Source of the DNA: a candidate division FCPU426 bacterium
Lineage (GTDB): Bacteria > Oederibacteriota > JAAXVQ01 > JAUVAV01
Direction: 5' to 3'
DNA: 64,000 nucleotides
NCBI GenBank assembly: GCA_040756875.1
Contig: JBFLYH010000003.1
Location: 128,001-192,000 of the forward strand
Below, piece after piece: positions 1,890 through 38,981 of this stretch. Each line of letters begins with the position of its first letter. The stretch's first letter is position 1. A model generated the notes under the pieces. It did no database searches, had not been told where the DNA came from, and worked only from the letters and a program-made list of their open reading frames with translations. Made by a program: the position numbers and the translations under genes.

Positions 1890-1892
1890 AAC

Positions 1893-3748: not shown

Positions 3749-4497
3749 TCCAAACCCGCTTTCGCCGCGCCCTGGACCACTATGACCAACACGCCGGCGT
3801 GCAGGCGGACGCGGCCAAGCGCCTGGTTGATTTAGTGCTGTCCCGGCTCGGCGCGGAGTTCCCGCGCGTGCTGGAGGTCGGCTGCGGCACCGGGCTGCTC
3901 ACGCGGCGCCTCATCGCCTCCCTGCGCATGCAGACTTTGTATGCGAATGACCTGGTCCCGGAATGCGGCCAGCGGCTCCCCGCGGTGCAGACGCCGCGTC
4001 TGGTTTTCCTTCCCGGCGACGCGGAGGCCGCGGCCGAGTGGCCGCCTGAACTGGACCTGGCCGTCTCGAACGCGGCGTTCCAATGGCTGCAAAACCCGGC
4101 GGCCCTGCTTGCGTCCCTGGCCGCGGCCCTGCGGCCCGGCGCCGGCCTGGCGTTCGCGGTTTTCGGTCCCGGGCACTGCCGCGAACTGCGCGACACGCTC
4201 GGCGTGGGCCTGGATTACCTCGGCCCGGCGCAGTGGCAGGAGCTGGCCGGGCGCGATTTCGAGTTCCTGTTCGCCGAAGAAGAGGAGCGCGCCCTCGTCT
4301 TCACCGGGCCGCGGGAGGTGCTCCGCCACCTGCGGGGCCTGGGCGCCACCGGCCTGGCCGGCTGGCGCTGGCGCAAGGAAAGCCTGCGCGCCTGGGAAAC
4401 CGAATACCGCCGGGCCCATGCGGCGCCCGGCGGGGTGCGCCTCAGCCAGCGCATCCTGTATCTGGTTTTCAAGAAACGCGGGGGGCTGGCGGCATGA
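3733..4497 (+). CDS. bioC: Malonyl-ACP O-methyltransferase
   Basis: MDKTLIQTRF...YDQHAGVQ, VLEVGCGTG SAM motif, SNAAFQW. Confidence 0.9.
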   Translation: MDKTLIQTRFRRALDHYDQHAGVQADAAKRLVDLVLSRLGAEFPRVLEVGCGTGLLTRRLIASLRMQTLYANDLVPECGQRLPAVQTPRLVFLPGDAEAAAEWPPELDLAVSNAAFQWLQNPAALLASLAAALRPGAGLAFAVFGPGHCRELRDTLGVGLDYLGPAQWQELAGRDFEFLFAEEEERALVFTGPREVLRHLRGLGATGLAGWRWRKESLRAWETEYRRAHAAPGGVRLSQRILYLVFKKRGGLAA

Positions 4498-11425: not shown

Positions 11426-13726
11426 TTACTTCTGGATGATCAGCACGATTTCAGCCCGCCGGTTCTTGGCCCGGCCGGCCGGCGTGGTCTCCGGCGCCAA
11501 GGGGAGGCGGGCGCCGTAACCCACGATCTCCATCTTATCTGTCGGTATCTTGCAGGAATAATGTAGGTACTCTTTCACCTTGCGCGCCCGTTCCCAGGCC
11601 AGTTCCAGTTCCTGGCCCTTGGCTTCCTGGGTGTCGGTGTAGCCCTTGATCTGCAGCCGGTACTTGGTGGCGTATTTATTGACCGTCTCGGCCGCCTGCT
11701 GCAAGCGGCGGAAGTCGCCCACCTGGATGGTCGTCGAGCCGGAGGCGAAATTGACCAGCGTCAGGTGCAGGGCCAGGGCCCGGGCGGTTTCCTCCACGCC
11801 CACGTCCGTGCCCACGGCCAGCATGGGCCCGGTGAAGGCAAAGGCGCCGGCAAAGGTCACGGTGGCCTGGGTCTGGAAGTAGGAGCCCATGCCGACCACC
11901 TGGCCGTTTTGGTCGCGGCAGTTCCAGACCACGCGGGCCGGCGGAGAACCGGCGCCCGCCAGGCGGCGGACCAGGTTCTTGTCCTCGGCCCCGCGGATCT
12001 CGACCTTCCAGGAGGACACTTCCTCCTTGGGCGCGATGTTCAGGGTGAAGGTCACGGCCGCGCCGCCCTTGGCCTTGAGGTCCACCAGCCTGGGTGCGGC
12101 TTCCATGCGGATCTTCGGTTCGACCGGCACCACGGCAAAAGTCTGGCCCGCGCTCTGGGCCTGGCCCTGCTCGTCCGTGACCACCATCACCGCCTCGTAA
12201 CCGCCCTCGTCCAGGGTCCGGCCGGCCAGCACCGGCACCCAGGGAATTTCCCGAGGCACCTTGCCTTCGCCGCTGAAGGTCTGCAGTTCCCGGCCCTCGC
12301 GCGAACGCACGGACAGCGTCCAGCGCACGGGCGGCAGGTTCTCGGCCTGGCGCGTCCGGAAGTACAGGGTCTGGGGCTTGCGGTCCGCGAACACCAGCAG
12401 CCGCTTGGGCACCACCTGCAGGGCGATGCCGGGCAGGGCCGAGCGGATCAGGACCGCGGCCAAGGCCTGGCCCAGCAGCCCGTTCTGCGCGTCGAACAAC
12501 TCCAGGCGCGCCTGGTAGGTGCCTTCGGGGCACAGGCTGCCGGCCTGGTCTTTTCCGTCCCAGGGGAACTGCTCGGTGTATTCCTGGCCGGTCCATTCGC
12601 GGGCCACGGTCCCGTCCGACCGGGCGACGGTCAGCCGCCAGTGGTGGACCAGGCTCAGATCGCCTTCCATCAGCTTGAGCTGGAACACCACGGAATCCGT
12701 CAACGTGCCGCCGCGCGGCGAGAAGACCTCGGGCAGGGCCAGCAGCTCCAGCTTGATCTCCGGCCGGGCCGCCGGCGCGGCGGCTGGGGTCGGTTCGGGC
12801 GTGGGCGCAGGCGGCGCCAGCTGCGGCAGGCCGTAGCTGGCGGCCAGGCGGTGCGACCACCCCAGTTCCGCGATCTGCCCCACCAGCGAATACTGGATGT
12901 CCCAGTCCGCCACCCGCACGCCCGCGCCGAAAGTGAACGTGCTGGCGTAGGAACTGTTGACCATGTAGCCCGCGCGCACGCCCACGATGTCCTGGAACCA
13001 CCGCTCCACGCCCAGGCGCAGCAGGCGGGTTTCCCGGGCCTGCTGGCCGGAGCCGATCCACTCCAGGTCCACGGCCGCGACCGTGGAGGCGTCGGGCCGC
13101 CAGGCCGATCCCAGGACCGCGCTTTGCGGCACCTGTTCGCTGAACCCGTTGTTCCAGGCCAGGCGGGTGTCCAGGTCCGCGAGCGTCAGGGACACGGCCA
13201 GCTGCTGGCCCGGCGCCGGAGCCGGCAGTAGATAGCGCAGGCCCACGTCCACGCCCAGGCCCGAATAATTCAGCTCGGCCTTGGGGATGAACCCGAAGAG
13301 GAATTTCAGGCCCGCGCCCAGGCGCAGGCGCTCGTCCGGCGTGAACGGCAGGCTGCCGGCCAGGTGCAGGGCGTCGGCGTTGATCTCCGCGGCCTGGGAA
13401 AAATATTCGTGCTGCCAGTTGAAGCCGGCGGCCGCGCCCGCGGGCAGCGGCCCGCCGGCCGCGAAGTTCACCACCCGCAGCCGGCCGTCGTACAGGGACC
13501 CGAATGACGTCCCGAAGCGCCAGGCCGAAAGGTCGCCCAGGCCCGCGGGGTTCCACGCCACCGCGGTCTCGTCGCCGGCCACGGCCGTATAAGCGCCGGC
13601 CATGCCCATGGCGCGCGCGCCCAGGCCGTTGGCCCCGCCCTTCTCATACAGGCCCGCGTTCAGCGCCTGCGGCCACAGCAGGGCCGCGGCCAGCAGCCAT
13701 CCCCATCCGGAGCCGGGCCGCCTCAT
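11426..13726 (-). CDS. PorV/FadL-like beta-barrel + FlgD-type Ig repeats + OmpA-like peptidoglycan-binding domain
   Basis: Signal peptide; [26 protein letters not shown]; repeated W.G.D..G....G.Y motifs; C-terminal NFASGS...IKGYTD...[10 protein letters not shown]. Confidence 0.75.
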
Positions 13727-16700
13727 CGCACCACCGCCAGCTTGAGGATCTGCCGTTCGGTCTGGCCGCTGGACGGATCGGTCGCCGTCACCACCACCAG
13801 GTAGACGCCGCTGGCCAGGCGCTCGCCGCGGGCGTTGGTCATGTTCCAGGTCAGCATGTCAGAGGAGCCGAAGTCCAGCTTGGCCAGCAGCTCGCCCGTG
13901 ATCGTGTACACCTTGGCCTTCACCTGCGCGCCGGCCAGTCGCGTGCGCACCCAGATGACGACCGTGTCGCGCGCCGGGTTGGGCGAGAGTTTCGCCGCGC
14001 TCACCACCCGGGCCGCGGACCGGATCACGGTCACGGCCTTGGTGACCACGGTGCGACGGTCCAGGCGGTCCGTGCTGATCGCCTGGATGTAATACTGGCC
14101 GCTCGCGACCAGCTGGTTCTCCTCGTTGGTCCCGTCCCAAGTGCCCTGGAACAGGTTGTCCGCCCAGATCTGCAGCTGCTCCCGGCCGTCGGCGTTCAGG
14201 AGCTCGCTGGAAAGCTGGAAGTCGTTGGCCGTCTGGATGATCGGCGTCTCCAGCAGGGTGCGGACGCGGGTGCCGGCCGTATCCAGCACCAGCAGCACCA
14301 GGCGCACGCCCGCGATCTCGGTCGGCGTGGGCGACGCCGTGGGCGAGGCCGTGATGGTCGGGGTGATGGTCGGCGTGGGCGTGATCGTGGGCGTGGGCGT
14401 GATGGTCGGCGTCGCGGTCGCCGTGGGCGTGACTGTGAAGGTCTGGGTCACGGTAAACGTTTCGGTGACGGTCGGTGTGTCCGTATCCGTCGGTGTGACC
14501 GTGGGCGTGGGCGTGACCGTGTACGTCGGCGTCTGGGTCGGGGTCTCGGTGTCCGTGGGGGTCGAGGTCAGGGTCGGTGTGACCGTATACGTCGGCGAAT
14601 CCGTGGGCGTGAAGGTGGATGTCGGCGTGTCCGTCGGCGTCATGGTGATGGTTTCCGTCTCGGTAATGGTCAGGGTCGGCGTGGACGTGGGCGTATCCGT
14701 GGAAGTCCAGGTGTCGGTCGGCGTGGCGGTCGAGGTCGCGGTGTCCGTGTCGGTCGGTGTGGCGGTCGAGGTCGAGGTTCCGGTCGGCGTCATGGTCGCG
14801 GTATCCGTGTCCGTGGGCGTGGCCGTGGGCGTCTGCGTGCAGGTGGCGGTGGCAGTGGGGGTATCCGTCGGCGTCATCGTATAGGTACCCGTATCCGTCG
14901 GCGTGACGGTGGAGGTCGGCGTGTCCGTCGGCGTCATGGTCGCCGTGGCCGTATCCGTCGGCGTGGCGGTGGAGGTCGGCGTGTCGGTCGGCGTCACGGT
15001 CACGGTATCCGTGTCCGTGGGCGTGGCCGTGTAGGTCGGCGTATCGGTCGGGGTCATGGTATCAGTTTCGGTCTCTGTGGGCGTAGCCGTAGACTCCGGC
15101 GTATCCGTCGGCGTGACGGTGTAAGTCGGCGTATCTGTCGGCGTCATGGTCACGGTATCCGTGTCCGTGGGCGTGGCCGTGTACGTCGGCGTGTCCGTCG
15201 GCGTCATGGTCACGGTGTCCGTGTCCGTGGGCGTGGCCGTGTACGTCGGCGTGTCCGTCGGCGTCATGGTCGGCGTGTCCGTGTCCGTGGGCGTGGCCGT
15301 GTACGTCGGCGTATCGGTCGGCGTCATGGTCGACGTGTCCGTGTCCGTGGGCGTGGCCGTGTACGTCGGCGTGTCCGTCGGCGTCATGGTCGACGTGTCC
15401 GTGTCCGTGGGCGTGGCCGTAGAGGTCGGCGTGTCCGTCGGCGTCATGGTCGACGTGTCTGTGTCCGTGGGCGTGGCTGTGGACGTCGGCGTGTCCGTCG
15501 GCGTCATGGTCGCGGTATCTGTATCCGTGGGCGTGGCTGTGTACGTCGGCGTGTCCGTCGGCGTCATGGTCGACGTGTCCGTATCCGTGGGCGTGGCCGT
15601 GTACGTCGGCGTGTCCGTCGGCGTCATGGTCGACGTGTCCGTATCCGTGGGCGTGGCCGTGTACGTCGGCGTGTCCGTCGGCGTCATGGTCACTGTGTCC
15701 GTATCCGTGGCTGTGGCCGTGTACGTCGGTGTGTCCGTCGGCGTCATGGTCACGGTGTCCGTGTCCGTGGCTGTGGCGGTGTAGGTCGGCGTGTCCGTGG
15801 GCGTCATGGTCGACGTGTCCGTGTCCGTGGCTGTGGCCGTATACGTCGGCGTGTCCGTGGGCGTCATGGTCGCGGTATCCGTGTCCGTGGGCGTCACGGT
15901 CGGCGTGGATGTGGAGGTGTCTGTATCCGTCGGCGTAGCCGTGAACGTCGGCGTATCGGTCGGCGTCACCGTAAACGTCGGGGTGTCCGTCGGCGTAGCC
16001 GTAGAGGTCGGCGTATCCGTCGGCGTTACCGTAAAGGTCGGCGTGTCCGTCGGGGTTACCGTAAAGGTCGGTGTGTCGGTCGGCGTCACTGTAAACGTCG
16101 GGGTGTCCGTCGGCGTAGCTGTAAAGGTCGGCGTGTCCGTCGGGGTTACCGTAAAGGTCGGCGTGTCCGTCGGCGTCACCGTGTCCGTCGGCGTGTCGGT
16201 CGGCGTCGCCGTAGAGGTCGGGGTGTCGGTCGGCGTGGTGGTAAACGTCGGCGTGTCCGTGGGCGTGATGGTCGCGGTATCCGTGTCCGTGGGCGTCGCC
16301 GTAGAGGTCGGGGTGTCGGTCGGCGTGGTGGTAAGCGTCGGCGTGTCCGTGGGCGTATCCGTGGGCGTGACCGTGGAGGTGTCGGTATCCGTCGGCGTGG
16401 CCGTGGACGTGGGCGTGTCCGTCGAAGTCGGCGTGAACGTGGGCGTGTCGGTACAGGTCGCGGTATCCGTATCCGTCGGCGTCACGGTATAGGTTCCCGT
16501 GTCCGTGGGTGTGACCGTGAAAGTCGGCGTATCCGTGGATGTTTCCGTAATGGTCGGGGTCGGGGTGTGGGTGACGGTGTTGGTGATCGTATCCTTCAGG
16601 GTCGGCGTATCCGTGGGCGTCTCGGTGTTCGTGGGCGAAATGGTCGAGGTGAGGGTAATGGTATCCGTAGGCGTGGCCGTGCTGGTGTCCGTATCCGTGG

Positions 16701-19700
16701 GCGTGACTGTATACGTCGGGGTGTGCGTGGGGGTATCCGTGGGTGAAGCCGTGGAGGTCCAGGTATCGGTCGGCGTCGCCGTAGAGGTCGGGGTGTCGGT
16801 CGGCGTCACGGTGTAAGTATCCGTGTCCGTGGGCGTGGCTGTGTACGTCGGCGTATCGGTCGGCGTCGCGGTACTGGTTGAAGTGTCAGTGGGCGTCACG
16901 GTAACGGTCAGCGTATCCGTCGGTGTCACGGTGAAAGTTGGCGTATCCGTCGGCGTTACGGTGTACGTACCCGTATCCGTGGGCGTCACCGTATAGGTCG
17001 GCGTGTCCGTGGGCGTCGTCGTATCCGTGGGCGTATCGGTTGGCGTGACGGTATAGGTCGGCGTGTCCGTCGGCGTCACGGTAAAGGTCGGCGTGTCCGT
17101 CGGCGTCACGGTAAAGGTCGGTGTATCCGTCGGCGTCACGGTGAAAGTTGGCGTATCCGTCGGGGTCACCGTATACGTCGGGGTGTCCGTCGGCGTCACG
17201 GTAAAGGTCGGGGTATCCGTCGGCGTCACCGTATACGTGGGGGTATCGGTCGGCGTCACGGTATACGTCGGGGTATCGGTCGGCGTCACCGTAAAAGTCG
17301 GCGTGTCCGTCGGGGTCGCTGTATACGTCGGCGTATCCGTGGGTGTCACGGTAAAGGTCGGCGTGTCCGTCGGCGTCACCGTATACGTCGGGGTATCGGT
17401 CGGCGTCACCGTAAAAGTCGGTGTGTCCGTCGGCGTCACCGTATACGTCGGGGTATCTGTCGGCGTTACCGTATACGTCGGGGTATCCGTTGGGGTCACG
17501 GTATAGGTCGGCGTGTCCGTCGGCGTCACCGTATACGTCGGTGTATCCGTCGGCGTCACGGTAAAAGTCGGGGTATCTGTCGGCGTCACCGTATACGTCG
17601 GTGTATCCGTCGGCGTCACCGTATACGTCGGTGTATCCGTCGGCGTCACGGTATACGTCGGTGTATCCGTCGGCGTTACGGTATACGTCGGTGTATCCGT
17701 CGGCGTCACCGTATACGTCGGTGTATCCGTCGGCGTCACGGTAAAAGTCGGGGTATCTGTCGGCGTCACCGTATACGTCGGTGTATCCGTCGGCGTCACC
17801 GTATACGTCGGGGTATCCGTTGGGGTCACGGTATAGGTCGGCGTGTCCGTCGGCGTCACCGTATACGTCGGTGTATCCGTCGGCGTCGCCGTAAAGGTCG
17901 GGGTGTCGGTCGGCGTGGTGGTAAACGTCGGCGTGTCGGTCGGCGTGGTGGTAAACGTCGGCGTATCCGTCGGCGTCACGGTATAGGTCGGCGTGTCCGT
18001 CGGGGTCACCGTGTAAGTCGGTGTGTCCGTCGGCGTTACCGTGTAGGTCGGCGTGTCGGTCGGCGTGGTGGTAAACGTCGGCGTGTCCGTCGGTGTCACC
18101 GTGAAGGTCGGCGTGTCGGTCGGCGTGGTGGTAAACGTCGGCGTATCCGTCGGCGTCGCCGTAAAGGTCGGGGTGTCGGTCGGCGTGGTGGTAAACGTCG
18201 GCGTGTCGGTCGGCGTGGTGGTAAACGTCGGCGTATCCGTCGGCGTCGCCGTAAAGGTCGGGGTGTCGGTCGGCGTGGTGGTAAACGTCGGCGTGTCGGT
18301 CGGCGTCGCCGTAAAAGTCGGGGTGTCGGTCGGCGTGGCGGTATCTGTCGGCGTGTCCGTGGGCGTGGTGGTGAAGGTCGGGGTGTCGGTCGGCGTGGCG
18401 GTATCTGTCGGCGTGTCCGTCGGCGTCATCGTACCGGTCGGCGAATCGGTCGGGGTCTCGCTGGCCGTGTTGGTCGGCGTCGGGGTGAAGGTAAACGTGC
18501 CGGTGGCAGAGGCGGTCGGCGTCGGCGTGGGCGTAAAGGTCCGGCTGGCCGAAGGCGAAGGCGTGATGGTGGGCGTCAAGGTCACCGTGGCTGTGGGCGG
18601 GTTGTTGCTCCAGGAAATAATGCCGGGAATATTGGCCGTCAAGGCCGGGAACCCGGCGCCGCTGGCGGTCACGGTGTTGGTTTCCGGATTTTCATTGTGC
18701 ACGAGCACTTGCGCCCAGCCGTTGGCGTCGGCCACGCCGGTCAGGCTGTTGAAATAATAGGCGCCGGGCCTCAGCAGCGTGCTGTCGATAAAGAAGCTGG
18801 TGCCCGTGGTGGTCACGGTCAGGACCGCGGCGGACGAGGTGACGTTGCCGTAGCGGTCCGTGATCTGCAGGTCCACGTAAGCCGGGTTGCTGGTCAGCAC
18901 GTATTGCAGGGCCGGCGTGGCCACCACGTGGTCAGGCGCGCCGGCGATGAAAAGCACGCTTTCCGGCACGTCGCGGTCCGGCACGGCCGTGGAGCCGGGC
19001 AGGGTGGCTGAATGCGGGGTGGCCCAGGCGGTTTCCGCGGTCTGGTCGGTGATGGTAATGGTCGCCGCGCCCGTGCCGGCTGTGGTGCCGGTCACGTAAT
19101 TGGTGCCCACCCCGGCCGGGCCGGTGAGCGACGTGGCCGTGAACCAGGCGTTGCCGCTGGCGGTCACGGTAATGGCCTGGGCGCTGGCCACGTTGTTGCC
19201 GTCCGCGTCCACCACCTGGATGTTCAACACCCGCGTGTTGCCGGCCGTGACCGGCGTGCCCGTGGGATCGGTGATCACCAGATGGTCCGCGCCGCCCGAG
19301 GCAAACACCACGGTCGCGGACACGTCCAGGGCGGGATTGCCCCACAAGCCGCTATTCGGGGTCACGGTCACGGTCTGCGCGACCAGGTCGCGCAGGTTCA
19401 GAACCGCCTGGCCGCTGGCATTGGTGAACCCGAACGCCAGGTTGGTGCCCGCGCCGGTCCAGCCGCCGGGCACGCTGGCGAAATAGGCCGAGCCGCTGGC
19501 CGTGACCGTCACCGGGTAGCTGGCGCCCACGGCCGCGCCCGTGCTGTCATAGAGTTGCAGGGTGATGTCCTCGCCCGGCCCGCCGGCGCCCACGGCCGCG
19601 CTGCCGTCCACCGCGGTGGCCACCGTGTACAGCGGCGGCCGGAACGTGGTCTGGGCCGTTACGTCCCGGCCGGGCGTGCCCCAGGCGTGAGAGGGCGAAA

Positions 19701-22700
19701 CGGTCACGGTTTCGGCTGCAGCGTCGGTCAGGGTCGCGGTTGCGGAACCGTCGCCGCCGGTGGTGACCGCGATCGGGTTGCCGGCCGCGGGCGCGGTGAA
19801 AGTGGCCGAACCGGTGGACGTCAGGTTGAAGGTCTGCACGCCGGACAACGAATTGCCCAGGCTGTCGAACACCTGGCAGGTGAAGACCCGGGAAGCGTTC
19901 ACGGGCTGGGCCGACGTGGCCGGGAACACCGCGACGTAGTCCGCGGCCATCACGTAAAACTCGTAGAACCGGTCCTGGGTCACGCCGTTGCTTTCCGTGG
20001 CGGTCACGAACGCCGCCCATTTCCCGGTCGGGCTGTTGGGGAAGGTGTAGTTGTAGCGGTACCAGCGCCACACGGCCGGGCTGCCGGAGTCCGTGGCCAG
20101 CAGGGTCATAGCCGCGTTCAGCACCCGGGTGGTCCCGGCTGAATCCACGATGGTGATGACCGCGCCGGTGATGTCGTAGGCGCCCAGGGGGTCGGAGATC
20201 CGCGCGCCGAACGAGCCGGCGTAGCCTCCGGCCTGGGCCGCGATGGATTGGCGGGTGTTGCCCGACGCGTCGAAAACCTGGATGGCGTCCACCCGGATGT
20301 AAGTGGTGGTCGTCATCTGAACGCGGGAGCGCTGGGTGGTGGAGTGATAGACCCGGAAATAACCGGTGGTGCTGCCGTAGCCCAGGTGCGTGAACCGCAT
20401 GGCCAGGGCGTACCCGGCCGGCACGGTGACCGGCGAAGCCACGGGAATGGTGAACGTCCGGGTGGCCGGCGTGCTGTTGGGAATCTGGATGGCCGTCAGC
20501 GTGGTTTCGCCGATCACCACGGTGTTGAAGCCATTGGTGTAAAAGAGCGTGACCGTGGCGTCCACGGAGCGGTTGTTGGTGGCGAGGATCAGCGGGATGG
20601 TCACGTTGGCCGTAATGGTGAAATCATCGGCCAGGGCCGGCTGCATGGACCAGGTTTGCTGGGAGAAAATCGGAATCAGCGTGTAGGTGCCGGTCGCGCT
20701 GGGGTCCGGCGTCGTGTCCAGGGAATAATTGGAAGCGCTGGGATGCAAATACAATGTCTTGGTTCTCGCGGCGGGCGCGAGCGATGTGGTGGTGAAGGTG
20801 GCGGTGCCCTGCAGGGACCCGCTTTGCTGCTGGGCGGTCAGGTGGATGACGTCCGTCACCCCGCCGCGTTCGCTGGCCGGGATGGACTTGCCCACCAGCA
20901 GGAACGTCGGCGTGCCGGCGGCCACGTTCACGTCCGGCCGGCTGTTGCCGTTGGTGTCATAGCCCCCCAGGACCCAATCCCAGGTGCCGTCGCCCGCCGC
21001 GTCCGCGGCAATGGTCACGCCCGCAGGCGTCAGCAAGTACGTGGCCCAGCCCGCGGTGGAGGGCGTGACCGTCAGGTCCCAGCGGTCCGTGACCGCGCTG
21101 CTGGTCAGGGACACCCCGTAATACACGGTCCGGCCCGGGTTGGCGGACGCGCTCCCGTCCGGCGCCAGGGAAAAGCCGCTGACCACGAAGGTCACGGTCC
21201 GGGAGTCGTTGCCCGTGTTCTGGTCCGTGTAGCCGGTGTCCGCGGCCAGGTTGGTGTACAGCTTGGCCGTGTAGGTGCCGGCCGGGACCGAGGAAATATC
21301 GAAGGCGCAGGTCACGGTCGCGGTCTCGGCGTCCGGCACGCTCAGGTCCACGGCCGTGAAGGTGACGTCTACGGGCGTGAAGGACGGGGCCGTGGACGTG
21401 ATCGAAATGTGCACCGGCAGGCCGAAGAAATCCTGCAGGCCGTACAGGGCTACCAGGCCCTGGATGTTGACCAGGGGGGTGACGCTGGGGTTGTACACCG
21501 TGCCGTCCGCCGGCGCGCTCAGGCTGTGGATGCCCGTGTCGTGCATCTTGCTCATGCCGTAGTCAATGCCGTCCTTCATGTCCTGGTAGGCCGTGCCGTT
21601 GGGCGTGTTGCTGTAGGACCAGACCACGGGCATGACCCAGGTGGACTGGGCGTTGAGGCTGGCGCGGTCCCAGGCCAGGGCTGTGCCCGCGTCGCCGAAA
21701 TAGTTGTTGTTGTTCTGCAGGTTGTCGTCGCGGATCCGCTGCCACATGGGAATGTACGCGGAGACGTCGTGCTGCGAGGAAGTTTCCCAGCCCCTGAATC
21801 CGCCGTAAGAAATCGGGCTGCCCGAGGGCTTGTAGCCGTACACGATGTCGTCCGTGGCGTTGTAGGCGCAGCTGTCGCCGGTGTTGTCGCCGCTGAAGTT
21901 CCAGTCCAGGCCCTGGAAGAACCTGAGGCTGGTTGCCTGCGTGCTGGCGTGGAGGTTTTTAATGTAATAGATGGCGGTGAACCACTTGAGGTTGCCGCGG
22001 ATGATGACCTTCTGGGTGATCGAGACCGGGACCGGCGCGCCCGCGGGCGCCGCCAATTCCGTGACAATGACCGATTCCAGCTTGCCGTTGGGCGTCTCGT
22101 GCAATTGCGTGTACGTCCGGGAAAGGTCGGTGAAATCGCCGTCGGCGCCGGTGTTGATGCCGCCGGGATTCCCGTACTGCCGGGTGAGGCCGCCGGCCGT
22201 GTAGCGCAGGGCGAGCTTGCTGCCGGCCATGTTGTCGTAGTTGGTGCCCAGGTTGTTGTCGCCCGTGCGGCCCAAGTGGTCGTCCGCGGCCGAGGGCATG
22301 CCGCCGTTGTAGGGCCAGATGATGGCCGAAATCTGGCCGCCGTAATCATTGCTGGCCGTGCCGGCGATCTCCACCATCAGGGAGTTGCTCGGCCCGGGGG
22401 GCGAAAGGAAGACCGTGTAGCCGGTGATCGGGTCGTCGTAGAAAACCAGCTGGCTGCCTTCCATGTACCACTGCAGGTTCTCGCCCTGGACCTTGCCGGT
22501 GGCGCGGTCCTGCGTGCCGCGGTTGGCGATTACCAGGCCGTCCGCGCGGCGGATCTCCCGCACGCGGTACCCGGCCGGGATGTCCGCGGTCAGGCGGTAC
22601 CACTGGCCCTCGAGCTTGTCGCTGAGCGTGAGTTCCAGGCAATTGTCCGCCAGGCGGTTGGCCTGGCGCAGGCGGGCGCGTTCCAGCCCGGCCGCGGGGC

Positions 22701-23100
22701 GCAGGGCGCCGCGGTAGCCGGACAGGTCCTGGTAGGCGTGCTCCACGTACAGCCGCCGGCCGGGCTTCAGCTGGCGGCCGCGGCCCAGGCGCAGGCCCGG
22801 GCGGAAGGCGCTGGTTTCCACCTGGCCTTCGCTCACGCTGCGCACGCGCACCGGCGTCAGGGCCCCCAGGCCCTGCGGCACCGCGGCGTCGGCGGCCACG
22901 CCCTGGCTGCGCAGCTGGCCGGGCTCGGGCGCCACGGCCTGGCGCACCACGTACTCGCGGCTGGCCGGGTCCCAGGCCAGCACCTGGTCCGGCGGCGCGG
23001 GCGCGTACGCGGCCTGGCTGGCCGCAGCCGCAGCTAGCAGCGCGATTACGCCGGCTGCCGAGGCCAGGAATCTGATTGTCGGTCGAACGTCACAGCTCAC
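13723..23100 (-). CDS. Giant secreted/surface protein (3125 aa): Ig-like beta domains, Thr/Pro repeat stalk, T9SS-like C-terminal domain
   Basis: Signal peptide; GTG after GGAGGG; ~1400 aa of TPTDTPT repeats; C-terminal SPNPARD...YTITGE...LASGVYLV...KLAVVR. Confidence 0.85.
14320..18595 (-). repeat. Coding tandem repeat with a 30-bp unit (TPTDTPT[FY]T[VAT]) and 60-bp higher-order blocks
   Basis: Directly visible periodicity, e.g. gtcggcgtgtccgtcggcgtcaccgtatac; 60-bp register at about 15130-15880. Confidence 0.95.
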
Positions 23101-29483: not shown

Positions 29484-30665
29484 ATGCTGCGGCTTATCGG
29501 GTGGTTCATCTACTATGTGCTGTTATGGCCGTGGCGCCTGGCAGGGCTTTTCGTCAAGTACCCCGACCTTTCCCGGCTCTATCGTTTCCCCTTCGGCGTC
29601 TTCGAGGCCCCTAATGTCGTGATCGAGCCCACCGCCGCATGCAATCTCAGGTGCGTGGACTGCTACCGGGGGAGCAACCTCCCGGACAAGCAGCATGCCG
29701 TGATGACCTTGCCGGAGATCAAAAAGTACGTCGACGACGCCCTGGCCCTCCGTAACTTCCATACCCTCTCCATCCTCGGCGGCGAACCGCTCCTCTACGA
29801 CCAGCTCGACGAAGTCATTGCCTATGCCGCGGGCAAGTGCGGCAGCGTGGGCATGTATACCAATGGCGTGCTGCTCGACGAGCAGCGGGCCCGGAAGCTC
29901 AAGGCGGCCGGGCTGGGCAGCTGTTACATCCACGTCGACCGGCATCAAGGCCGCGGGTCCGACGAGGATCAGATCATGCGCCTCCGGCAGCAGTACTGCG
30001 ACATGTTCCGCGCCCTGGGCGGCGTCAACCTCAGCCTCGGCGTCACCTTCCACCGGGAGGACTTGCCCTACCTCGATCAGATGGTCAGCCTGACGCGGCA
30101 AAACGCCGATGTGGTGAAAGTCGTGGGGCTCAGTTTGGTGGGGGCTTCTTATTTGCCGCGGTCCACGCAGCTGTCCACCTTCATCCATTTTCTCAAAGAG
30201 AGCGATCAGGTCGACCTCTTCCAGCGGCAGATGATCAAGCGCATCCAGGAGGCTTTTGGCATTGAATATTCCGCCTATTTGGGCAGCAAGTTCCGCCCGA
30301 AAGTGCCGGGCAAGATCGTGGCGCTCAGCGCCTACCGGCAGGGAAAGCTGCTCGGCTCAATGACAGGCGAGGAATTCAAGGCTGCCACTGACGCCTATTT
30401 CCAGGAACACGGCAAGTACCCCTACGTGCTGAGCCGCGAGGGGTTCAGCGCCATAGGGTCTCATTGCCGCCGGTTTGGCGACAATGTCGACTGGCAGTTA
30501 GTGGCGGTCTCGTTAAGCCCGCTTCTGCTGCCCGAACTGGCGGTGAATGTTTGCCATACGTGCATGGACTGCGTGCTCTATCAGGGCCATTTCGTCCCTA
30601 TGTGCGTGCTGGAGCATGTCAAACAGGACAATCCGGTGGTGCTTAACAGCGTGCGCTATTGGTGA
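29484..30665 (+). CDS. Radical SAM protein
   Basis: CNLRCVDC (CxxxCxxC), GGEPLL, YTNG; C-terminal CHTCMDC. Confidence 0.9.
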   Translation: MLRLIGWFIYYVLLWPWRLAGLFVKYPDLSRLYRFPFGVFEAPNVVIEPTAACNLRCVDCYRGSNLPDKQHAVMTLPEIKKYVDDALALRNFHTLSILGGEPLLYDQLDEVIAYAAGKCGSVGMYTNGVLLDEQRARKLKAAGLGSCYIHVDRHQGRGSDEDQIMRLRQQYCDMFRALGGVNLSLGVTFHREDLPYLDQMVSLTRQNADVVKVVGLSLVGASYLPRSTQLSTFIHFLKESDQVDLFQRQMIKRIQEAFGIEYSAYLGSKFRPKVPGKIVALSAYRQGKLLGSMTGEEFKAATDAYFQEHGKYPYVLSREGFSAIGSHCRRFGDNVDWQLVAVSLSPLLLPELAVNVCHTCMDCVLYQGHFVPMCVLEHVKQDNPVVLNSVRYW

Positions 30666-30963: not shown

Positions 30964-31073
30964 TGATAGTGTTTTATCGATTAGACCGGGTATATTGGAT
31001 TTTCATGCGGGGATTTTGTACTGGAAGGCCTTATAGAATGGTCATTTTGACATTTAAACAACGTCCCGGTTTA

Positions 31074-31325
31074 CTATTTACTTTTTTTTCGCGGCTTTTC
31101 GGACTTCTTTATGAGGGTTGACAGGTTGGTGCCTAAGGCTTTGGCAATAAGGTTGGCGACATGCAGCGATGGAATGCGCTTTTTACGTTCCAACAGCCCG
31201 ATGGTGGTCTTGTGCACCCCGGCTATTTGGGCCAGCTTTTCCCGGGTGATTCCCTTCTCTTCCCTGATTTCCTTGATAAGCGTTAAAAACGAGGATGTAA
31301 GCGGGTCCGTATTGGGCTGATCCAC
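31074..31325 (-). CDS. XRE-family HTH regulator (controller-protein-like)
   Basis: IKEIREEKGITREKLAQIAGVHKTTIGLLERKKRIPSL. Confidence 0.85.
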   Translation of the reverse strand: MDQPNTDPLTSSFLTLIKEIREEKGITREKLAQIAGVHKTTIGLLERKKRIPSLHVANLIAKALGTNLSTLIKKSEKPRKKSK

Positions 31326-31384
31326 AAGCTTTCCTCCGGGATTAGATAAACTTAGTAAATGCTTTTACCTGGCAAATTGCTAGT

Positions 31385-31422
31385 AGACTATTGTCTTTCT
31401 GTATGCTAGGTTGACTATAGTC
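31385..31422. promoter_or_regulatory. Paired palindromic operator (C-box-like)
   Basis: AGACTATTGTCT at 31385 and GACTATAGTC at 31413, between the divergent XRE gene and a small ORF. Confidence 0.6.
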
Positions 31423-31433
31423 TTTCCCGGAGG

Positions 31434-31718
31434 ATGCCCTTGCCTTCCCAGCCCCTTCTCGATATCCATATCAGACCCGCCCCTGCCCCGGCCCCCTACA
31501 GAGCCGCTGTTGCGCAGGTGGTTTTATGTCAGAATATTTTTTTAAAGGAAATAGCGATTTTGAAATATAAGGAAGGGGTGTGGGTCCTGCTGCCAGAGCA
31601 GTTCGTAAATCGCTGCAGGAACCCAAGGGCGAAAAGGGTTTTAGAGGAGGTTGTTAGGGGGTTGGAGGGGGAGTTGAGGGAAGTAATAGTTAGCTATGTA
31701 TTTCAGGACTTCAGTTAA
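31434..31718 (+). CDS. Small hypothetical protein with weak SpoVG-like pattern
   Basis: GGAGG immediately before the ATG (atypically close); A.A.V.L...I.LKEI.I.....GVWV.LP pattern. Confidence 0.45.
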   Translation: MPLPSQPLLDIHIRPAPAPAPYRAAVAQVVLCQNIFLKEIAILKYKEGVWVLLPEQFVNRCRNPRAKRVLEEVVRGLEGELREVIVSYVFQDFS

Positions 31719-31849
31719 TTTTTCCGATGCAGCCTGACAGTTCGACCGGCAAGTGGAGTGATCGTCAGGTGAGTACCATCACTATAACCACCACTTCACA
31801 TTAGACTTAATGGGGAACATTACACAGTTCCGTTCAAACCGTTCACTTT

Positions 31850-31952
31850 ACAAATAAAAAGCAGCCCGTCCCTGCCGCTTTTGTTTTATTCCCAATGTAT
31901 ATGAGAATAAAACCCATGCATGTGTGTGATTTTATTTTAGACGGAGCATGGT
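31850..31952 (-). ncRNA. Candidate DRT3 non-coding RNA with ACACAC template loop (boundaries approximate)
   Basis: Directly after the drt3b stop: CCATGC/GCATGG stem enclosing ATCACACACAT, then a GTTTTATTCTC/GGGAATAAAAC hairpin, then an AAAAGCGGC/GCTGCTTTTT hairpin. Confidence 0.7.
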
Positions 31953-34013
31953 TTAATACACTTCTTGGCTTTTTTTAGCCTCGAGTTCTTTCCCAAAATC
32001 AAAATCACTCCAGTTGGTGAAACTGAAATTACTATTGATAAATATTTCATCTTGCTCATTTTTATCACTAATATCATAGATACTCAATATCTTTCTTTTG
32101 AAATCTTTAGTGAAAAAAGGGCACGAAAGAAGATCAAAAAGTAGTAGTGTCAATTCCGCTTTTTTTATTCTTTTTTCCTGCGGAACTTCAGAGATGGTTT
32201 CACAAATATACTGTTGCAATATACATTTCAACATATTATAACGTGGTTTATTTTCTATATAGAACAACAGAACAGTTATCGAGAAATAATTCAGTTTATA
32301 TTTAACCTGTTTTTCCTCAAGATCAATATTAAAACACTTGCCCAACACTTCTTCTTCTAACCGGTAATCCCTCCCCAGTTCTTTTAATGCCGTAAGAAGA
32401 TAAAGCGTTTCAATTTGATAATACTCCGTATTTTTATTTTTATTGATAATAATAAATATATTGTCATATATTTTTTTAAATATTACGTTTTTATTTTCAT
32501 TGTTAAAATTGCCTTTAATTTTTGCTGCCTTAATCACTTTACTAATTATCATACATAATTTAATCGTCGTATTAACTCTCGGCGATACAGAATATATAAA
32601 AAATACGAATTCCAGTAATTCTAATATTGCTTTAGTCACCTTCTTTTCCTGAGCACGTTTATCTTCAATACCGCAATATATTTTAATAAGTTTCAATATC
32701 CTTCTATCAATACCAGCAAGTGTATAATTCAAAACATCCTTATATTCGATTCCGGCGTTATAAATAATTATTTTAAATTTTGTGATCAACTTATTCGAAC
32801 TGATATATATTGAGTACTTTTTATCACCTTCATCAGTATCATCAGCAGCATCTGTATCAATATTATCTTTTAATTCAGCAGATACTTTGTATTTCATATA
32901 TTTATTCAGCAAGTCGCTAATATTTGATTTCGCAATTGTTATTTTAGTAATAATGGGTTTTTTAAATAACATTGTTTTCGAGTCGTTAATATATAAATTG
33001 TATTCTTTTAATTGACGTCTATATTCTTTTACTATTTCAGTTTTGGTTTTTTCATCATTAAAATAAACAAAATAGTCATCTACATAACGGTATATTTCGT
33101 AGTCATTTTTATAATATATTCTATTTTTCTCTAATCCGCGTAAAACATTCAAATCAATTTTTTGCATTATTATTTCAGCAAATATTCTTGAAAACTCAGG
33201 ACCAATAACAATTCCATTGGTTTCTCCATAGTTCATGTTCTGCATCATAGTATCGAACTTCCCACCAAATGTAGCTTTAGATTCTTCCGTCTTTTCTTTT
33301 ACTATTTCCTTATTCAATATTGCCCAAGAAATGGAGTGGCTATAAATACTATCAAAGCACTTTAAGATATCGAATTTCATCATTTCGTTATATTTTTTTT
33401 CACATTCATGATACTTGTATGATTCGTAAAATTTGTATACATTGCTAAATTCTTTATATGTGAAATATGTTTTCAAACTTTCATATTCTTTATCATATTC
33501 TTCCATCGATTTGTGCTCGTGATCATGAGCTAACAATTCCAAATGTGTTTTATCTTTATAGTAGATATGTTTTGCCGTTTTATATGGTCTCCTGATTGAG
33601 AAAGGGCTAATATTACAATAATATAAAATCATTTCCTTATATTTATCATAGTGTTCAATTACTGCCAGTTGATTCTTTGGATGGATAATTGTTAATTGTC
33701 TAAAATCATTTTCATTATGGGATATCCTATAATTAAATGGTATCGTTGTGTAGTCCTTCGCACATTTCAGAGATATACTTTGATTTACAATAGGCATGTT
33801 TTTTGGAAAACCAAATAATAATTTTATAACTGACCCAAAAGACGGTTCGCTATTTCCCCATTTTAGTTTATTTTCCGCAAGGCATATTTTGTTACGATTA
33901 ATAAATTCTCGAAAACGCCGGTTTGAAAATGATATCGGAATTTCATATGGTAAAACATCGGAAAGAATCACTCTTTCTTTTTTCATACTTATCTTTTTTT
34001 TCTTGTGCTTCAT
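31953..34013 (-). CDS. drt3b: Antiviral reverse transcriptase Drt3b (UG8-type)
   Basis: ERVILSDVLPYEIPISFSN, KFDILKCFDSIYSHSISWA, GETNGIVIGPEFSRIFAEII, catalytic YRYVDD; long helical C-terminus; AT-rich. Confidence 0.88.
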   Translation of the reverse strand: MKHKKKKISMKKERVILSDVLPYEIPISFSNRRFREFINRNKICLAENKLKWGNSEPSFGSVIKLLFGFPKNMPIVNQSISLKCAKDYTTIPFNYRISHNENDFRQLTIIHPKNQLAVIEHYDKYKEMILYYCNISPFSIRRPYKTAKHIYYKDKTHLELLAHDHEHKSMEEYDKEYESLKTYFTYKEFSNVYKFYESYKYHECEKKYNEMMKFDILKCFDSIYSHSISWAILNKEIVKEKTEESKATFGGKFDTMMQNMNYGETNGIVIGPEFSRIFAEIIMQKIDLNVLRGLEKNRIYYKNDYEIYRYVDDYFVYFNDEKTKTEIVKEYRRQLKEYNLYINDSKTMLFKKPIITKITIAKSNISDLLNKYMKYKVSAELKDNIDTDAADDTDEGDKKYSIYISSNKLITKFKIIIYNAGIEYKDVLNYTLAGIDRRILKLIKIYCGIEDKRAQEKKVTKAILELLEFVFFIYSVSPRVNTTIKLCMIISKVIKAAKIKGNFNNENKNVIFKKIYDNIFIIINKNKNTEYYQIETLYLLTALKELGRDYRLEEEVLGKCFNIDLEEKQVKYKLNYFSITVLLFYIENKPRYNMLKCILQQYICETISEVPQEKRIKKAELTLLLFDLLSCPFFTKDFKRKILSIYDISDKNEQDEIFINSNFSFTNWSDFDFGKELEAKKSQEVY

Positions 34014-34024
34014 TCCATTACCCT

Positions 34025-35344
34025 TTACCACATCTCAATTATTTTTTTTAATTCATATGATTCGAAAGGCGAATATCTCTTTGTCTCAAAACCTTCGCTA
34101 AAACTATACTTCAATAACCTAGCTTTAAGTTGGGAAGTATGTATTTCATTAATAATTTTAGTTCGTAAATAGTTATCCAAGTGTTGTAAATCTATCTTGT
34201 CCGTCAAATGACAATTAGAATAGTAAATACCCACTAATATATTTTGTTTATTGCCCTTTAACCGAGTATTTCCAGTTAAATATCTCACCCTTTTAACGAG
34301 TATTTTCCTCGCTTCTTTTTCATTAATTCTGCTTAAATTATTATAGTGATCGAATGACACATTTATTTTCTTGATATATTTCATATATTTTTGCTTAGTT
34401 AATTTTGTTTTGACCTGACCATCTTTAAACTCAATTCTATATCCAAGGTAATCAAATTCGCAAGATTGCTTTTTATCTAACAGGTTAAAGATAGTTGTTT
34501 TATCAATATTTATTTTTAATTCATATTTTTGTTCGATTATATCTTTTACTTGTGCTATGTAATCCGTTTTATCGCCCATTGAACTTGGAGTGAAAATAAT
34601 AACAATATCGTCAACATATCTTGAATAATATGCAAGATTAGGTAGCTTGTTGATTTCTTTATCAATTTGACTCATATATATTTCTGCAAAATAAGCGCTA
34701 ACTCCAATTCCCCTCGGAATGCCTTTTTCACTCCCGGATAATTTTTTATACTCACTAAATATTTGTCGTACAATTTTTTTCGAAGTAGGTGTTAATAGAT
34801 CATTCTCATTTATTTGATTTATCAATCTATCTCGCGGGATACTTTCATAAAAATTGCTTATATCCGTTCTTAATACCTGTTTCGGGAACTTGTCTCCAAT
34901 GATTTTCAATAATTGATCTATTATTGTATTTCTGCTTGATTGTTTAACACCAAATAGTTTCGAAACATTCATTTGCAATTGTTTCATAATAAAATACTGC
35001 TCCGGCTTATCTCTAATAACGTAAATAAATTTACCGTCTTTATTTTTATTTGCTATTATTTCTACTTTAAAATCAGTCATCAATGCTTTTTGACTGACCT
35101 CCTCCAATTTCGCAGTTAGTTCTTTTTCCTTTTGTTCTTTTAGTTTTATTCTTTCACAATATATTTTATTACTTTCATCTTTAGTTAATTCTTTATTTTC
35201 TCTCAGCCGTATCGAATACTGTTTAATTTGTTCGGAGATTTTCTTAAGATCCGGAAAATATCTTCCCTCGAGATATATTCCTTTCCTATTTTCCAGATCC
35301 AATATTCTTCTAAAATTTTCTGCTGAAAACGATTGGCTTAGCAC
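34025..35344 (-). CDS. drt3a: Antiviral reverse transcriptase Drt3a (UG3-type)
   Basis: MLSQSFSAENFR, RTDISNFYESI, GIPRGIGVSAYFAEIYM, catalytic YSRYVDD, FDYLGY; directly upstream of drt3b. Confidence 0.88.
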   Translation of the reverse strand: MLSQSFSAENFRRILDLENRKGIYLEGRYFPDLKKISEQIKQYSIRLRENKELTKDESNKIYCERIKLKEQKEKELTAKLEEVSQKALMTDFKVEIIANKNKDGKFIYVIRDKPEQYFIMKQLQMNVSKLFGVKQSSRNTIIDQLLKIIGDKFPKQVLRTDISNFYESIPRDRLINQINENDLLTPTSKKIVRQIFSEYKKLSGSEKGIPRGIGVSAYFAEIYMSQIDKEINKLPNLAYYSRYVDDIVIIFTPSSMGDKTDYIAQVKDIIEQKYELKINIDKTTIFNLLDKKQSCEFDYLGYRIEFKDGQVKTKLTKQKYMKYIKKINVSFDHYNNLSRINEKEARKILVKRVRYLTGNTRLKGNKQNILVGIYYSNCHLTDKIDLQHLDNYLRTKIINEIHTSQLKARLLKYSFSEGFETKRYSPFESYELKKIIEMW

Positions 35345-35447
35345 GGGTTAAAAGCCACCCCCTCTATATGACAATACCGAGAATATCTAGATTCAAAATA
35401 TCGAAAGAAGTATAATGACCTCAGTTTCTATTTACTTCGTTGCCTTT

Positions 35448-36284
35448 TCATCCTAGATATGCTAAAAGTGCCCCAGTAAAATGTAATGCTAATTGAGCAT
35501 CTTTAGGTTCCATAATTACACTATTTTGCTGTTCATGTCTTGCCAAGTGTAGATACCCAGAAAGTTCAACAATTATAGAATTAATTTTATCTGCTTTCTG
35601 ATGATCAGACACAATTTTATTTATAGCTTCTAAACCCCGCCCCATATCATCGCTTCCCGATGTATCTTTTATTAATGCTTCAAATGCTTTTCGACAATTC
35701 ATTAATGTTTCATCCCACAAGCCTCGCCGATAACAATTTATAGCATCATTAAATCGATCCAATGCCCGAGCTACATTTGGTTTTCGTTGAATACTACGCG
35801 CAGGTAATTCTATCAATTCAACTTCTGACCACGCAAACATTCTAAGGTGCTTAATCCATTCCGATTGAGGAATATGATAGTCTATCCTTGTATCTTCGGT
35901 TATTTGTTTATAAACCGGTTGTCCAAGTACAATCGGTTTAGGTTCCGTCTCAACTTGACATACTAGTGCTTGGGCATAAATTGTAAAATCAACATCGCCT
36001 CCCGCACGCTGCTCTTCAATATATTTCAAGACATTAGGCGTAAACTGAATCTCAATTGATCCTTGGGTGACTGTTCCTGGTTGTATTATTGGGGATAATA
36101 TATTCATTATTTTACCTTCAGCAATTGATGTTCCAGTTTTGCCGATAACCTTTACCCACACATCTAGAATGCATATAGCACACGTAGATTGGTTTCTTAT
36201 TTCACATTTTAATTCAAGAAGTCTAAGCGGAAGGCCACTTGAATAGCATTCCTTAATGGTTGTTGATAGCCTAACTTGTTCCAT
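35448..36284 (-). CDS. Hypothetical protein: beta-rich N-terminus plus HEPN/Abi-C-like helical C-terminus
   Basis: AT-rich; NCRKAFEALIK...YLHLARHE...DAQLAL pattern; co-oriented upstream of drt3a. Confidence 0.6.
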   Translation of the reverse strand: MEQVRLSTTIKECYSSGLPLRLLELKCEIRNQSTCAICILDVWVKVIGKTGTSIAEGKIMNILSPIIQPGTVTQGSIEIQFTPNVLKYIEEQRAGGDVDFTIYAQALVCQVETEPKPIVLGQPVYKQITEDTRIDYHIPQSEWIKHLRMFAWSEVELIELPARSIQRKPNVARALDRFNDAINCYRRGLWDETLMNCRKAFEALIKDTSGSDDMGRGLEAINKIVSDHQKADKINSIIVELSGYLHLARHEQQNSVIMEPKDAQLALHFTGALLAYLG

Positions 36285-37973: not shown

Positions 37974-38981
37974 TCAGCTTAAATAATACTTTGTCGCCCG
38001 GGCTTTCCCTGCCATCCCGACGATTCCGGCTTTGATCAAAGGCGCGATCAGTTGATTGACCCTGGCCCGGTTGATTTTCATGGCTGCGCCGATGTCTTTG
38101 GAACTGCAGCCCGCGTTTTGCTTGATAAAATGAATAAGCTCTTCCTGCTTGCCTGAAAGCGCGATCTCCTTTTTAGGCGAAACCGCCAACTGGTAGATCC
38201 TGCCCAGGGCGCTCTCCAGGGTTTCCAAAACGCCCTGGGCGAGGTAATCCAGCCAGTAGGTCAAATCGTAATCCAGCTCCCGGGCCTGGCGGATTTTCTG
38301 GTAGTATTTTTCCCGGTCTTGGGCGAAATATTCATCCAGCGCGGCAATATGCGACGGATCGTACTGCCCGTGGTAGAGAATCCACAGCGAAACCGCCCTG
38401 GCCAGCCTGCCGTTGCCGTCGGCAAAGGGGTGGATGGTCACGAACTGGTGGTGGAACACGGCGCTGGCGATGACAGGGTTCATACCTTTTGCGCGCGCGA
38501 GCCATGCCAATAAATCGCGCATGAGTTTCGGAACCGCGGGCGCAGCGGGGGGGGTGTATGCCGTGCGGCCCTTGCCATCGAGCACGTAGTTCTGCACTTC
38601 GCGGTAGCGGCCGCATTTCTCGGGGTTGACCAATCCCCGGGTGATCATGCGGTGCAGGCGCAGCAGGTCCTTTTCAGCCACGGGTTTGTCCGCGTGGTCC
38701 AGCACCCATTGCAGGGCCTGGATATAATTGGCGACTTCCCTTTTCTGCCTTTCGTCCGCCCTGACCTCTTTTCGCCCGCGCAAGGCGGCCACCTGTTCGA
38801 GCGAAAGCCGGTTCCCCTCGATCCAGGTCGAAGAATGGACGTTGCGGTTGAATGCTTCGGTTTGGAGCATCAGCTTGGCCGGCAGACGAACGCGGCTCTT
38901 GCGGATATCCGCCTGGAGCGCCGCGATCTTTTCGATGCAGCCGAGGAAATATTCGGTAATGCGGTAATTGGGTCGGTACAT
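37974..38981 (-). CDS. Fic-domain protein with C-terminal winged HTH
   Basis: Canonical HPFADGNGRLAR Fic motif; STWIEGN inhibitory-helix-like motif. Confidence 0.92.
   Translation of the reverse strand: MYRPNYRITEYFLGCIEKIAALQADIRKSRVRLPAKLMLQTEAFNRNVHSSTWIEGNRLSLEQVAALRGRKEVRADERQKREVANYIQALQWVLDHADKPVAEKDLLRLHRMITRGLVNPEKCGRYREVQNYVLDGKGRTAYTPPAAPAVPKLMRDLLAWLARAKGMNPVIASAVFHHQFVTIHPFADGNGRLARAVSLWILYHGQYDPSHIAALDEYFAQDREKYYQKIRQARELDYDLTYWLDYLAQGVLETLESALGRIYQLAVSPKKEIALSGKQEELIHFIKQNAGCSSKDIGAAMKINRARVNQLIAPLIKAGIVGMAGKARATKYYLS

Follow-up and report, generated by a model that had tools for sequence, protein, structure and literature searches.

In E. coli, the ncRNA of the DRT3 defence system is encoded downstream of drt3b and, according to the text of Wang et al. 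2026 (PMC13174585), its conserved 5'-ACACAC-3' loop templates the synthesis of poly(dTdG) by DRT3a. The same text reports that this synthesis needs the ncRNA plus only dGTP and dTTP, that mutation of the ACACAC loop abolishes both poly(dTdG) and defence, and that DRT3b makes poly(dCdA) without a template. A 6:6:6 Drt3a:Drt3b:RNA complex was described by Deng et al. 2026 (Science), and six RNAs lie at its centre according to the reviews that report it (PMC13314766 and PMC13213688). In passages of Mestre et al. 2022 (PMC9226505), an exposed 'CACACA'-like motif is placed downstream of UG8 in groups 1-17, with RNA structures that are group-specific and a distance between the motif and the end of the RT that varies. 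Passages of a preprint (10.64898/2026.06.29.735271) describe two anchored stem-loops which frame the template in DRT2, DRT3, DRT9 and DRT10, and argue that the template boundary is set by the distance from the 5' anchor. A stem-loop or a pseudoknot can be the template boundary element of telomerase RNA (text of PMC12632851).

The window analyzed here, which is the whole stretch of 64,000 nucleotides, carries on its minus strand a drt3a-drt3b pair followed by a structured element. This element is very probably a compact version, about 100 nt long, of the ncRNA that DRT3 defence systems encode in cis. Its kind is already known, since the E. coli DRT3 work gives the same template role to ACACAC (text of PMC13174585).

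The DRT3 genes and their neighbourhood

The gene drt3b lies directly 3' of drt3a on the same strand, and both open reading frames abut or overlap at 34025-34031 (Table 1). Drt3a was identified by PADLOC (E 8e-113) and by the NCBIfam equivalog NF041747 (375.5 bits, cut-off 200), and Drt3b by PADLOC (E 2e-208) and by the equivalog NF041748 (742 bits, cut-off 350). The window proteins are only distantly related to those studied in E. coli; for example, Drt3a matches the Drt3a chain 9z6y_A of PDB with E 5e-23, with a YVDD motif in the alignment. Residue Y419 of DRT3a is said to contact the 5' stem-loop (passages of 10.64898/2026.06.29.735271); in the window alignment no Tyr is found at 419 of 9z6y_A, whose chain numbering is possibly offset from the published one.

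Among solved structures, the one closest to Drt3b is the EcoDRT3b chain 26cz_A (E 1.8e-88), which the window protein matches at E22, R71, D182, F187 and R241, as well as in the YVDD motif (residue numbers are those of the chain minus 108, to account for a 108-residue tag). E22 and R241 are described as gates, and the roles of the EcoDRT3b residues are those given in the text of PMC13174585. The window Drt3b ends with EVY, followed by a TAA stop at 31955-31953. This C-terminal Tyr is invariant in the alignment of 24 homologs and is the positional counterpart of the priming Tyr, Y666, in the E. coli protein of 667 aa. As judged from these sequences, the protein side of the window's DRT3 system looks intact and the genome carries what looks like a complete DRT3 system.

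Directly upstream of drt3a and on the same strand is an ORF of 278 aa (35448-36284, minus), with no match in Pfam, PADLOC or NCBIfam. Other genes of the neighbourhood encode a radical SAM protein whose viperin-like matches are weak and far under the cut-offs (29484-30665, plus), an XRE-type HTH protein (31074-31325, minus) and a Fic/DOC protein (37974-38981, minus), and these three may form a small defence or mobile neighbourhood. Furthermore, an open frame of 3125 aa (13723-23100, minus) shows only a sub-threshold extensin-like, low-complexity match and is overlapped by long plus-strand ORFs, such as 20248-23037; it represents either a giant protein with repeats or an artefact of the frame.

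Table 1. Coordinates of the DRT3 genes and of the predicted elements of the RNA in the window.
Feature	Position	Strand	Description
drt3a	34025..35344	minus	UG3, Class 2 reverse transcriptase; 439 aa, GTG start
drt3b	31953..34031	minus	UG8, Class 1 reverse transcriptase; 692 aa from GTG, 686 aa from ATG
Predicted DRT3 ncRNA, compact class	31856..31951	minus	Covariance-model match 31958-31845
P1 5' arm	31946..31951	minus	CCAUGC; pairs with 31919-31914
Pseudoknot 5' strand	31939..31944	minus	CCGUCU; pairs with 31871-31866
Linker	31929..31938	minus	AAAAUAAAAU; unstructured, 10 nt, A/U; between pseudoknot and template
Predicted template	31921..31928	minus	CACACACA; single-stranded in P1 loop
P1 3' arm	31914..31919	minus	GCAUGG; 1 nt past the CACACACA tract, 2 nt past its last C
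P2 hairpin	31883..31913	minus	12 bp, 7-nt loop UAUACAU (RNAfold)
P2 strands	31913-31903 / 31893-31883	minus	GTTTTATTCTC / GGGAATAAAAC
P3 hairpin	31857..31882	minus	8-nt loop AGGGACGG; GC core 31878-31874 with 31865-31861
P3 loop bases	31871-31866	minus	Pseudoknot 3' strand
U-tract	31852..31860	minus	UUUUUAUUU; likely 3' end by intrinsic termination (predicted)

Predicted fold of the RNA downstream of drt3b

The RNA elements begin one base past the drt3b stop, at 31951 and on the same strand, which is the position right after this gene that a previous reading of the sequence alone (the sequence-only reading) had given them. Folding of 31955-31850 with RNAfold shows the same three hairpins (P1, P2 and P3) in the MFE and in the centroid structure, and the fold energy of -32.2 kcal/mol compares with -16.2 +/- 2.8 kcal/mol in 200 dinucleotide shuffles (z -5.68), none of which was as stable (0/200).

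The P1 helix, proposed by the sequence-only reading as CCATGC with GCATGG on the minus strand, is borne out base for base. It closes a loop of 26 nt that contains, from 5' to 3', the 6-nt pseudoknot strand, the 10-nt linker and then the template; the AC repeat which had been placed at the end of this loop is found at 31928-31921 and is single-stranded in RNAfold. For the next hairpin (31913-31883) a stem of about 11 bp had been claimed; the hairpin is there, and RNAfold gives it one pair more. The GC hairpin with a U-tail claimed at 31882-31856 is present as well, with TTTTT. The apical loop of P2 (31895-31901) is conserved in the closer relatives of alignment A2 (see below) as AUAnACA-like loops, which hints at a protein or tertiary contact.

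A promoter scan of 31600-32500 found three sigma-70-like sites, compared with 3.3 expected from shuffles, and one of them is on the minus strand (32102-32073), inside drt3b. Among the sequencing runs listed for this DNA there is a single DNA run, possibly that of the source sample, and no RNA run.

Conservation and covariation in homologous loci

The sequence-only reading had expected ACACAC and the stems to recur behind drt3b homologs and to be captured by a covariance model of these regions, and they do. Homologs of Drt3b were collected, 24 were aligned, and the best 80 loci were taken from contigs of one genome per species. An ACACAC was found 3' of the drt3b stop in 80 out of 80 of these best loci, which come from many phyla; its distance from the stop is at most 60 nt in 77 of them, and 78, 127 and 134 nt in the other three. 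Furthermore, it is present in the seven plasmid loci (7/7). The window and 24 downstream regions were aligned with MAFFT (alignment A2, 25 regions). In A2, ACACAC is invariant and 91.2% of the cells are paired, compared with 78.1% in shuffles (0/500 equal it).

The covariance model R1 was built from A2 with the nested helices P1, P2 and P3 only. In the 64-kb window, R1 matches the RNA (Table 1) with 109.5 bits and E 1.7e-30, an E-value that is rough by the tool's own statement, and the next best match has 12.9 bits. In the genome of 3.2 Mb it is the sole strong match, the rest having at most 24.3 bits. A search of 83 sources (606,196 nt, both strands) gave 80 plus-strand matches with E<0.01, one per source, and all of them sit at the 3' flank of drt3b. 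The remaining matches are five weak antisense ones of 20-22.8 bits, which overlap the same hairpins. At this threshold, R1 missed three of the 83 sources (L002, L059 and L075); in a smaller search L075 and L059 reached 19.2 and 17.4 bits, respectively, and L002 gave no match. A search of 31000-36000 with Rfam 15, at E up to 1, returned only a chance snoRNA match of 20.6 bits, and Rfam 15 contains no DRT3 RNA family.

The 79 R1 matches with E<0.001 form alignment A4, in which all pairs (32/32) have double-sided changes. Its cells are 91.6% paired, compared with 65.4% in shuffles, a difference that relatedness of the sequences can inflate, and with 42-52% when the partner is slid, a control which argues against such inflation and is not formal in the way that R-scape is. 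P1 is 91.2% paired, P2 87.6% and P3 97.1%, and changes on both sides are found in all 6, 12 and 8 pairs, respectively. The compact class is spread over Bacteroidota, Pseudomonadota, Acidobacteriota, several candidate phyla and integrative elements of E. coli.

Candidate pseudoknot between the P3 loop and the template loop

The P3 loop AGGGACGG and the segment CUCCGUCU, just past the P1 5' arm, are both conserved, complementary and co-varying. Six of the eight loop nucleotides take part in the pairing (Table 1), with a predicted duplex of -10.4 kcal/mol. Among the co-varying examples are CCGUC/GACGG, UCGUC/GACGA, CCGCUC/GAGCGG and CAGUCC/GGACUG, as well as CUGCC/GGCAG, CCAGA/UCUGG and CUAGUC/GACUAG. 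In the 79 RNAs of A4, these six pairs are 92.2% paired, compared with 75.3% in shuffles, and the covariation score is 0.481, compared with 0.211; neither value was equalled in 500 shuffles (0/500 each). With slid partners, pairing ranges between 35 and 64%. All six pairs have double changes, and the change from CG to UA is found in 25 sequences and that from UA to CG in 16. Because this pairing is not part of R1, the R1-guided alignment is unbiased towards it.

In an alignment-free analysis, the duplex of the P3 loop with its own 5' region has a mean of -8.6 kcal/mol, compared with -6.07 kcal/mol for the loops of other loci and -6.13 kcal/mol for the own loop reversed, and the own loop is within the best quarter of the different loops at 61 of the 79 loci. 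The four worst loci are L054, L055, L060 and L079; by eye, the R1 alignment appears to have put P3 on a separate downstream terminator in these, with the pseudoknot hairpin just upstream. The covariation thus gives good support to a predicted pseudoknot in the compact class, being blind to whether the pairing is in cis or between neighbouring RNAs of a multimeric complex. We infer that the pseudoknot would fix the geometry of the template loop.

The word pseudoknot is absent from the text of the Wang preprint (PMC13174585) and from the text passages on UG8 RNAs in PMC9226505, whose structures are in supplementary figures. Among the full-text matches listed for DRT3 together with pseudoknot, PMC12632851 uses the word for telomerase RNA and the other is, by its title and abstract, a paper on DRT2. 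A pseudoknot as tertiary core is therefore absent from the searchable DRT3 text, and figures, supplements or the Science cryo-EM paper may hold it.

P3 hairpin and termination

The last hairpin had been read as a possible 3' end or terminator. P3 is indeed terminator-like: the terminator scan flagged it with a stem of 9 pairs, a loop of 8 nt and a T-rich tail, as one of two sites compared with 0.6 expected from shuffles. It is probably more than that and has a function in the RNA beyond marking the 3' end, because its loop is conserved and forms the pseudoknot. The loop has 8 nt in 58 of the 79 sequences. At least five T within the 8 nt after P3 are found in 56 of the 79 homologs; in the other 23 there is no strong T-run and the P3 hairpin is still present, so P3 appears to be kept for a reason other than termination. 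By eye, P3 is followed by a separate terminator in some loci, among them L037, L054, L055, L060 and, in E. coli, L084 and L092. The P3 of the window probably does both jobs, terminator and pseudoknot.

P3 (31857-31882) lies between an A-run and a T-run, and it is terminator-like on the plus strand too, where it could serve the convergent small ORF 31434-31718 (plus), which shows a weak SpoVG-like Pfam match below the cut-off. The same symmetry of A-run and T-run hairpins explains the weak antisense R1 matches in other loci.

Template-adjacent stem-loop and the 10-nt linker

A stem-loop of 4-7 bp, located 0-2 nt upstream of the template, is found in 52 of the 79 RNAs of A4. Twenty-three RNAs, among them that of the window, show no such hairpin and have an unstructured linker of 9-15 nt instead, which is exactly 10 nt long in 17 of them; the remaining four are ambiguous. 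On a Drt3b tree of 77 rows (IQ-TREE quick search, LG+G4; L003, L059, L061, L075 and L076 left out), the hairpin trait needs at least seven changes, five of which are forced by well-supported branches. On this tree, the window has as its nearest neighbours MAGs labelled Bacillota, Omnitrophota and Margulisiibacteriota, none of which has the hairpin. This comparison shows the template-adjacent stem-loop to be an apparently dispensable module within the compact class. The closest Drt3b relatives of the window are MAGs labelled Bacillota, Omnitrophota, Margulisiibacteriota and Chloroflexota, which points to frequent horizontal transfer of the whole DRT3 module, RNA included.

In the window, the 3' flank of the template consists of the P1 3' arm with P2 stacked on it, and 5' of the template there are only 10 unstructured nucleotides and then the pseudoknot strand, which differs from the two stem-loops of Class 2 UG systems. 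By analogy, the pseudoknot may act as the 5' anchor in this hairpin-less variant, setting the template boundary at a fixed distance of 10 nt; this is our own inference. We tentatively place the window in a compact DRT3 class that has a pseudoknot core, about one third of which lacks the template-adjacent stem-loop and has an approximately fixed linker of 10 nt, a reading that may well hold in all its parts but falls somewhat short of being probable. If the pseudoknot takes over the role of the 5' boundary, as one can in some telomerase RNAs, no smaller natural scaffold for iterative repeat synthesis would be known than this RNA, which would also be, if the reading is true, a natural test of the model in which the template is defined by its distance from an anchor.

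Proposed mechanism and alternative explanations

The RNA would be transcribed on the minus strand behind drt3a and drt3b, probably ending at P3 and the U-tract. P2 would stack directly on P1, and six bases of the P3 loop would pair with the 5' part of the loop closed by P1. [quoted passage not shown] The proposal of the sequence-only reading that the AC loop is the template for poly(GT) synthesis by Drt3a gains support from this comparison, as it agrees with the text of PMC13174585 and as motif and stems are conserved, with covariation, among relatives of the window.

The region could instead be a mere 3' untranslated tail of the drt3ab operon, with mRNA-stabilising hairpins, an intrinsic terminator and an incidental CA repeat. 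P3 and the T-run fit the terminator consensus and the symmetric hairpin could also terminate the convergent ORF 31434-31718, but an incidental repeat does not sit easily with an ACACAC that is invariant in the 80 loci from many phyla, nor a plain tail with the covariation of P1, P2, P3 and the loop-loop pairing. A plain terminator needs neither a conserved loop nor one of 8 nt, and the ncRNA is essential in E. coli DRT3 (texts of PMC13174585 and of Mestre 2022, PMC9226505), all of which makes such a tail highly improbable. Only slightly better placed, and still improbable, is the explanation in which the RNA is a true DRT3 cofactor whose CACACA tract serves as a recognition or scaffold site for protein and is not copied. 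A role in recognition or attachment was proposed by Mestre et al. 2022 (passages of PMC9226505), a scaffold role in the 6:6:6 complex is also given to the RNA in the text of the review PMC13314766, and the window lacks the stem-loop that flanks the template 5' in the published model. However, the requirement of E. coli DRT3a for the ncRNA with dGTP and dTTP, and the loss of product upon mutation of the loop (text of PMC13174585), speak for copying; the tract lies single-stranded beside a helix, an arrangement shared with other Class 2 template RNAs (passages of 10.64898/2026.06.29.735271), and an invariant AC repeat is precisely what copying into poly(GT) calls for.

The pairing of 31944-31939 with the P3 loop could also join different RNA molecules, as a kissing contact that assembles the Drt3a-Drt3b-RNA particle. 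The 6:6:6 complex with its six central RNAs (texts of PMC13314766 and PMC13213688) would suit such a contact, covariation does not separate cis from trans, and the fixed 8-nt loop and 10-nt linker fit both readings. Direct counter-evidence is lacking for this contact, but pairing within one molecule is the simpler assumption when the strands lie about 70 nt apart in a single small RNA, and we regard the contact between molecules as unlikely, while giving it clearly more weight than the two explanations above.

With the DRT3 ncRNA and its intramolecular pseudoknot as the preferred reading, the analysis is mostly a confirmation, in that the sequence-only reading had correctly anticipated the mechanism published for DRT3. 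What the comparison of loci adds is a concrete structural model for a compact class of DRT3 RNAs that is widespread. The pseudoknot and the stem-loop module could be of use in designing minimal template RNAs with which to synthesise repeat DNA.

Comparison with known systems

E. coli loci were reached by tblastn on plasmids and with an Enterobacter drt3b as blastn query; when a compact ncRNA of proteobacterial origin (L043) was the query against E. coli genomes, blastn gave no match. One of the loci, L091, is taken to be the studied EcoDRT3 locus, and the N-terminus of its Drt3b is identical to the 26cz chain over 42 comparable residues. On the E. coli chromosome, the DRT3 genes of L091 (locus coordinates 860-4250) are located between an integrase and psu and ogr/delta genes, and these neighbours point to a P4-like satellite element.

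The RNAs of the window and of L091 are both directly downstream of drt3b on the same strand, with a terminator hairpin after. Both show a closing helix round a loop with a single-stranded ACACAC 1-2 nt before the 3' arm of the helix, and their partner proteins Drt3a and Drt3b have the same key residues. They differ in length, about 155 nt in L091 and about 100 nt in the window, and in content: the predicted closing helix of L091 surrounds three stem-loops, with the third directly next to the template, whereas P1 of the window holds none. The window RNA has an extra hairpin after P1 (P2) and the P3-loop pseudoknot, whereas the terminator of L091 has a GAAA loop without complementarity, by eye, to the 5' region. 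R1 gave no match on L091, so the case for homology of both RNAs is made by position, topology and motif and not by an alignment. With its P2, P3 and pseudoknot, the compact fold forms a class distinct from the RNA of L091, overall topology and motif being in common.

E. coli also contains the compact class: L084, L092 and L093 belong to it, with 18-20 bits for R1 and, by eye, a pseudoknot complementarity UCAGGC/GCCUGA. The more distant plasmid loci L085, L086, L089 and L090 are of a long class, which R1 did not match and in which the template is 121-224 nt after the drt3b stop. In L089 and L090, from Acetobacter and Novosphingobium plasmids, a segment CUCCCGU(U/C)(U/C)AAAGG is found 60-75 nt after this stop; it resembles the pseudoknot strand CUCCGUCUAAA of the window, so that the long class may have a related tertiary contact. 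Another locus from the phylum of the window (L002, genome G055), again without an R1 match, shows CACACAC about 100 nt past the end of the Drt3b match, with a GGGCGGGAAACCGC-type hairpin before and a short terminator after, and its RNA is probably another ncRNA class.

The varying distance of the motif in the UG8 RNA groups of Mestre et al. 2022 (passages of PMC9226505) matches the compact and long classes seen here; the difference is that recognition, not templating, was the role proposed for the motif. Compared with Rho-independent terminators, the P3 of the window is likewise a GC-rich hairpin followed by a U-tract, but its loop is conserved in length and sequence and covaries with an upstream segment. 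The RNAs of DRT10, DRT9 and DRT2 and telomerase RNA belong to other RT families and have no sequence relation to the DRT3 RNA. The likeness to all four is that a short internal template is copied iteratively with resetting by microhomology, and that anchored RNA elements set the template window (passages of 10.64898/2026.06.29.735271).
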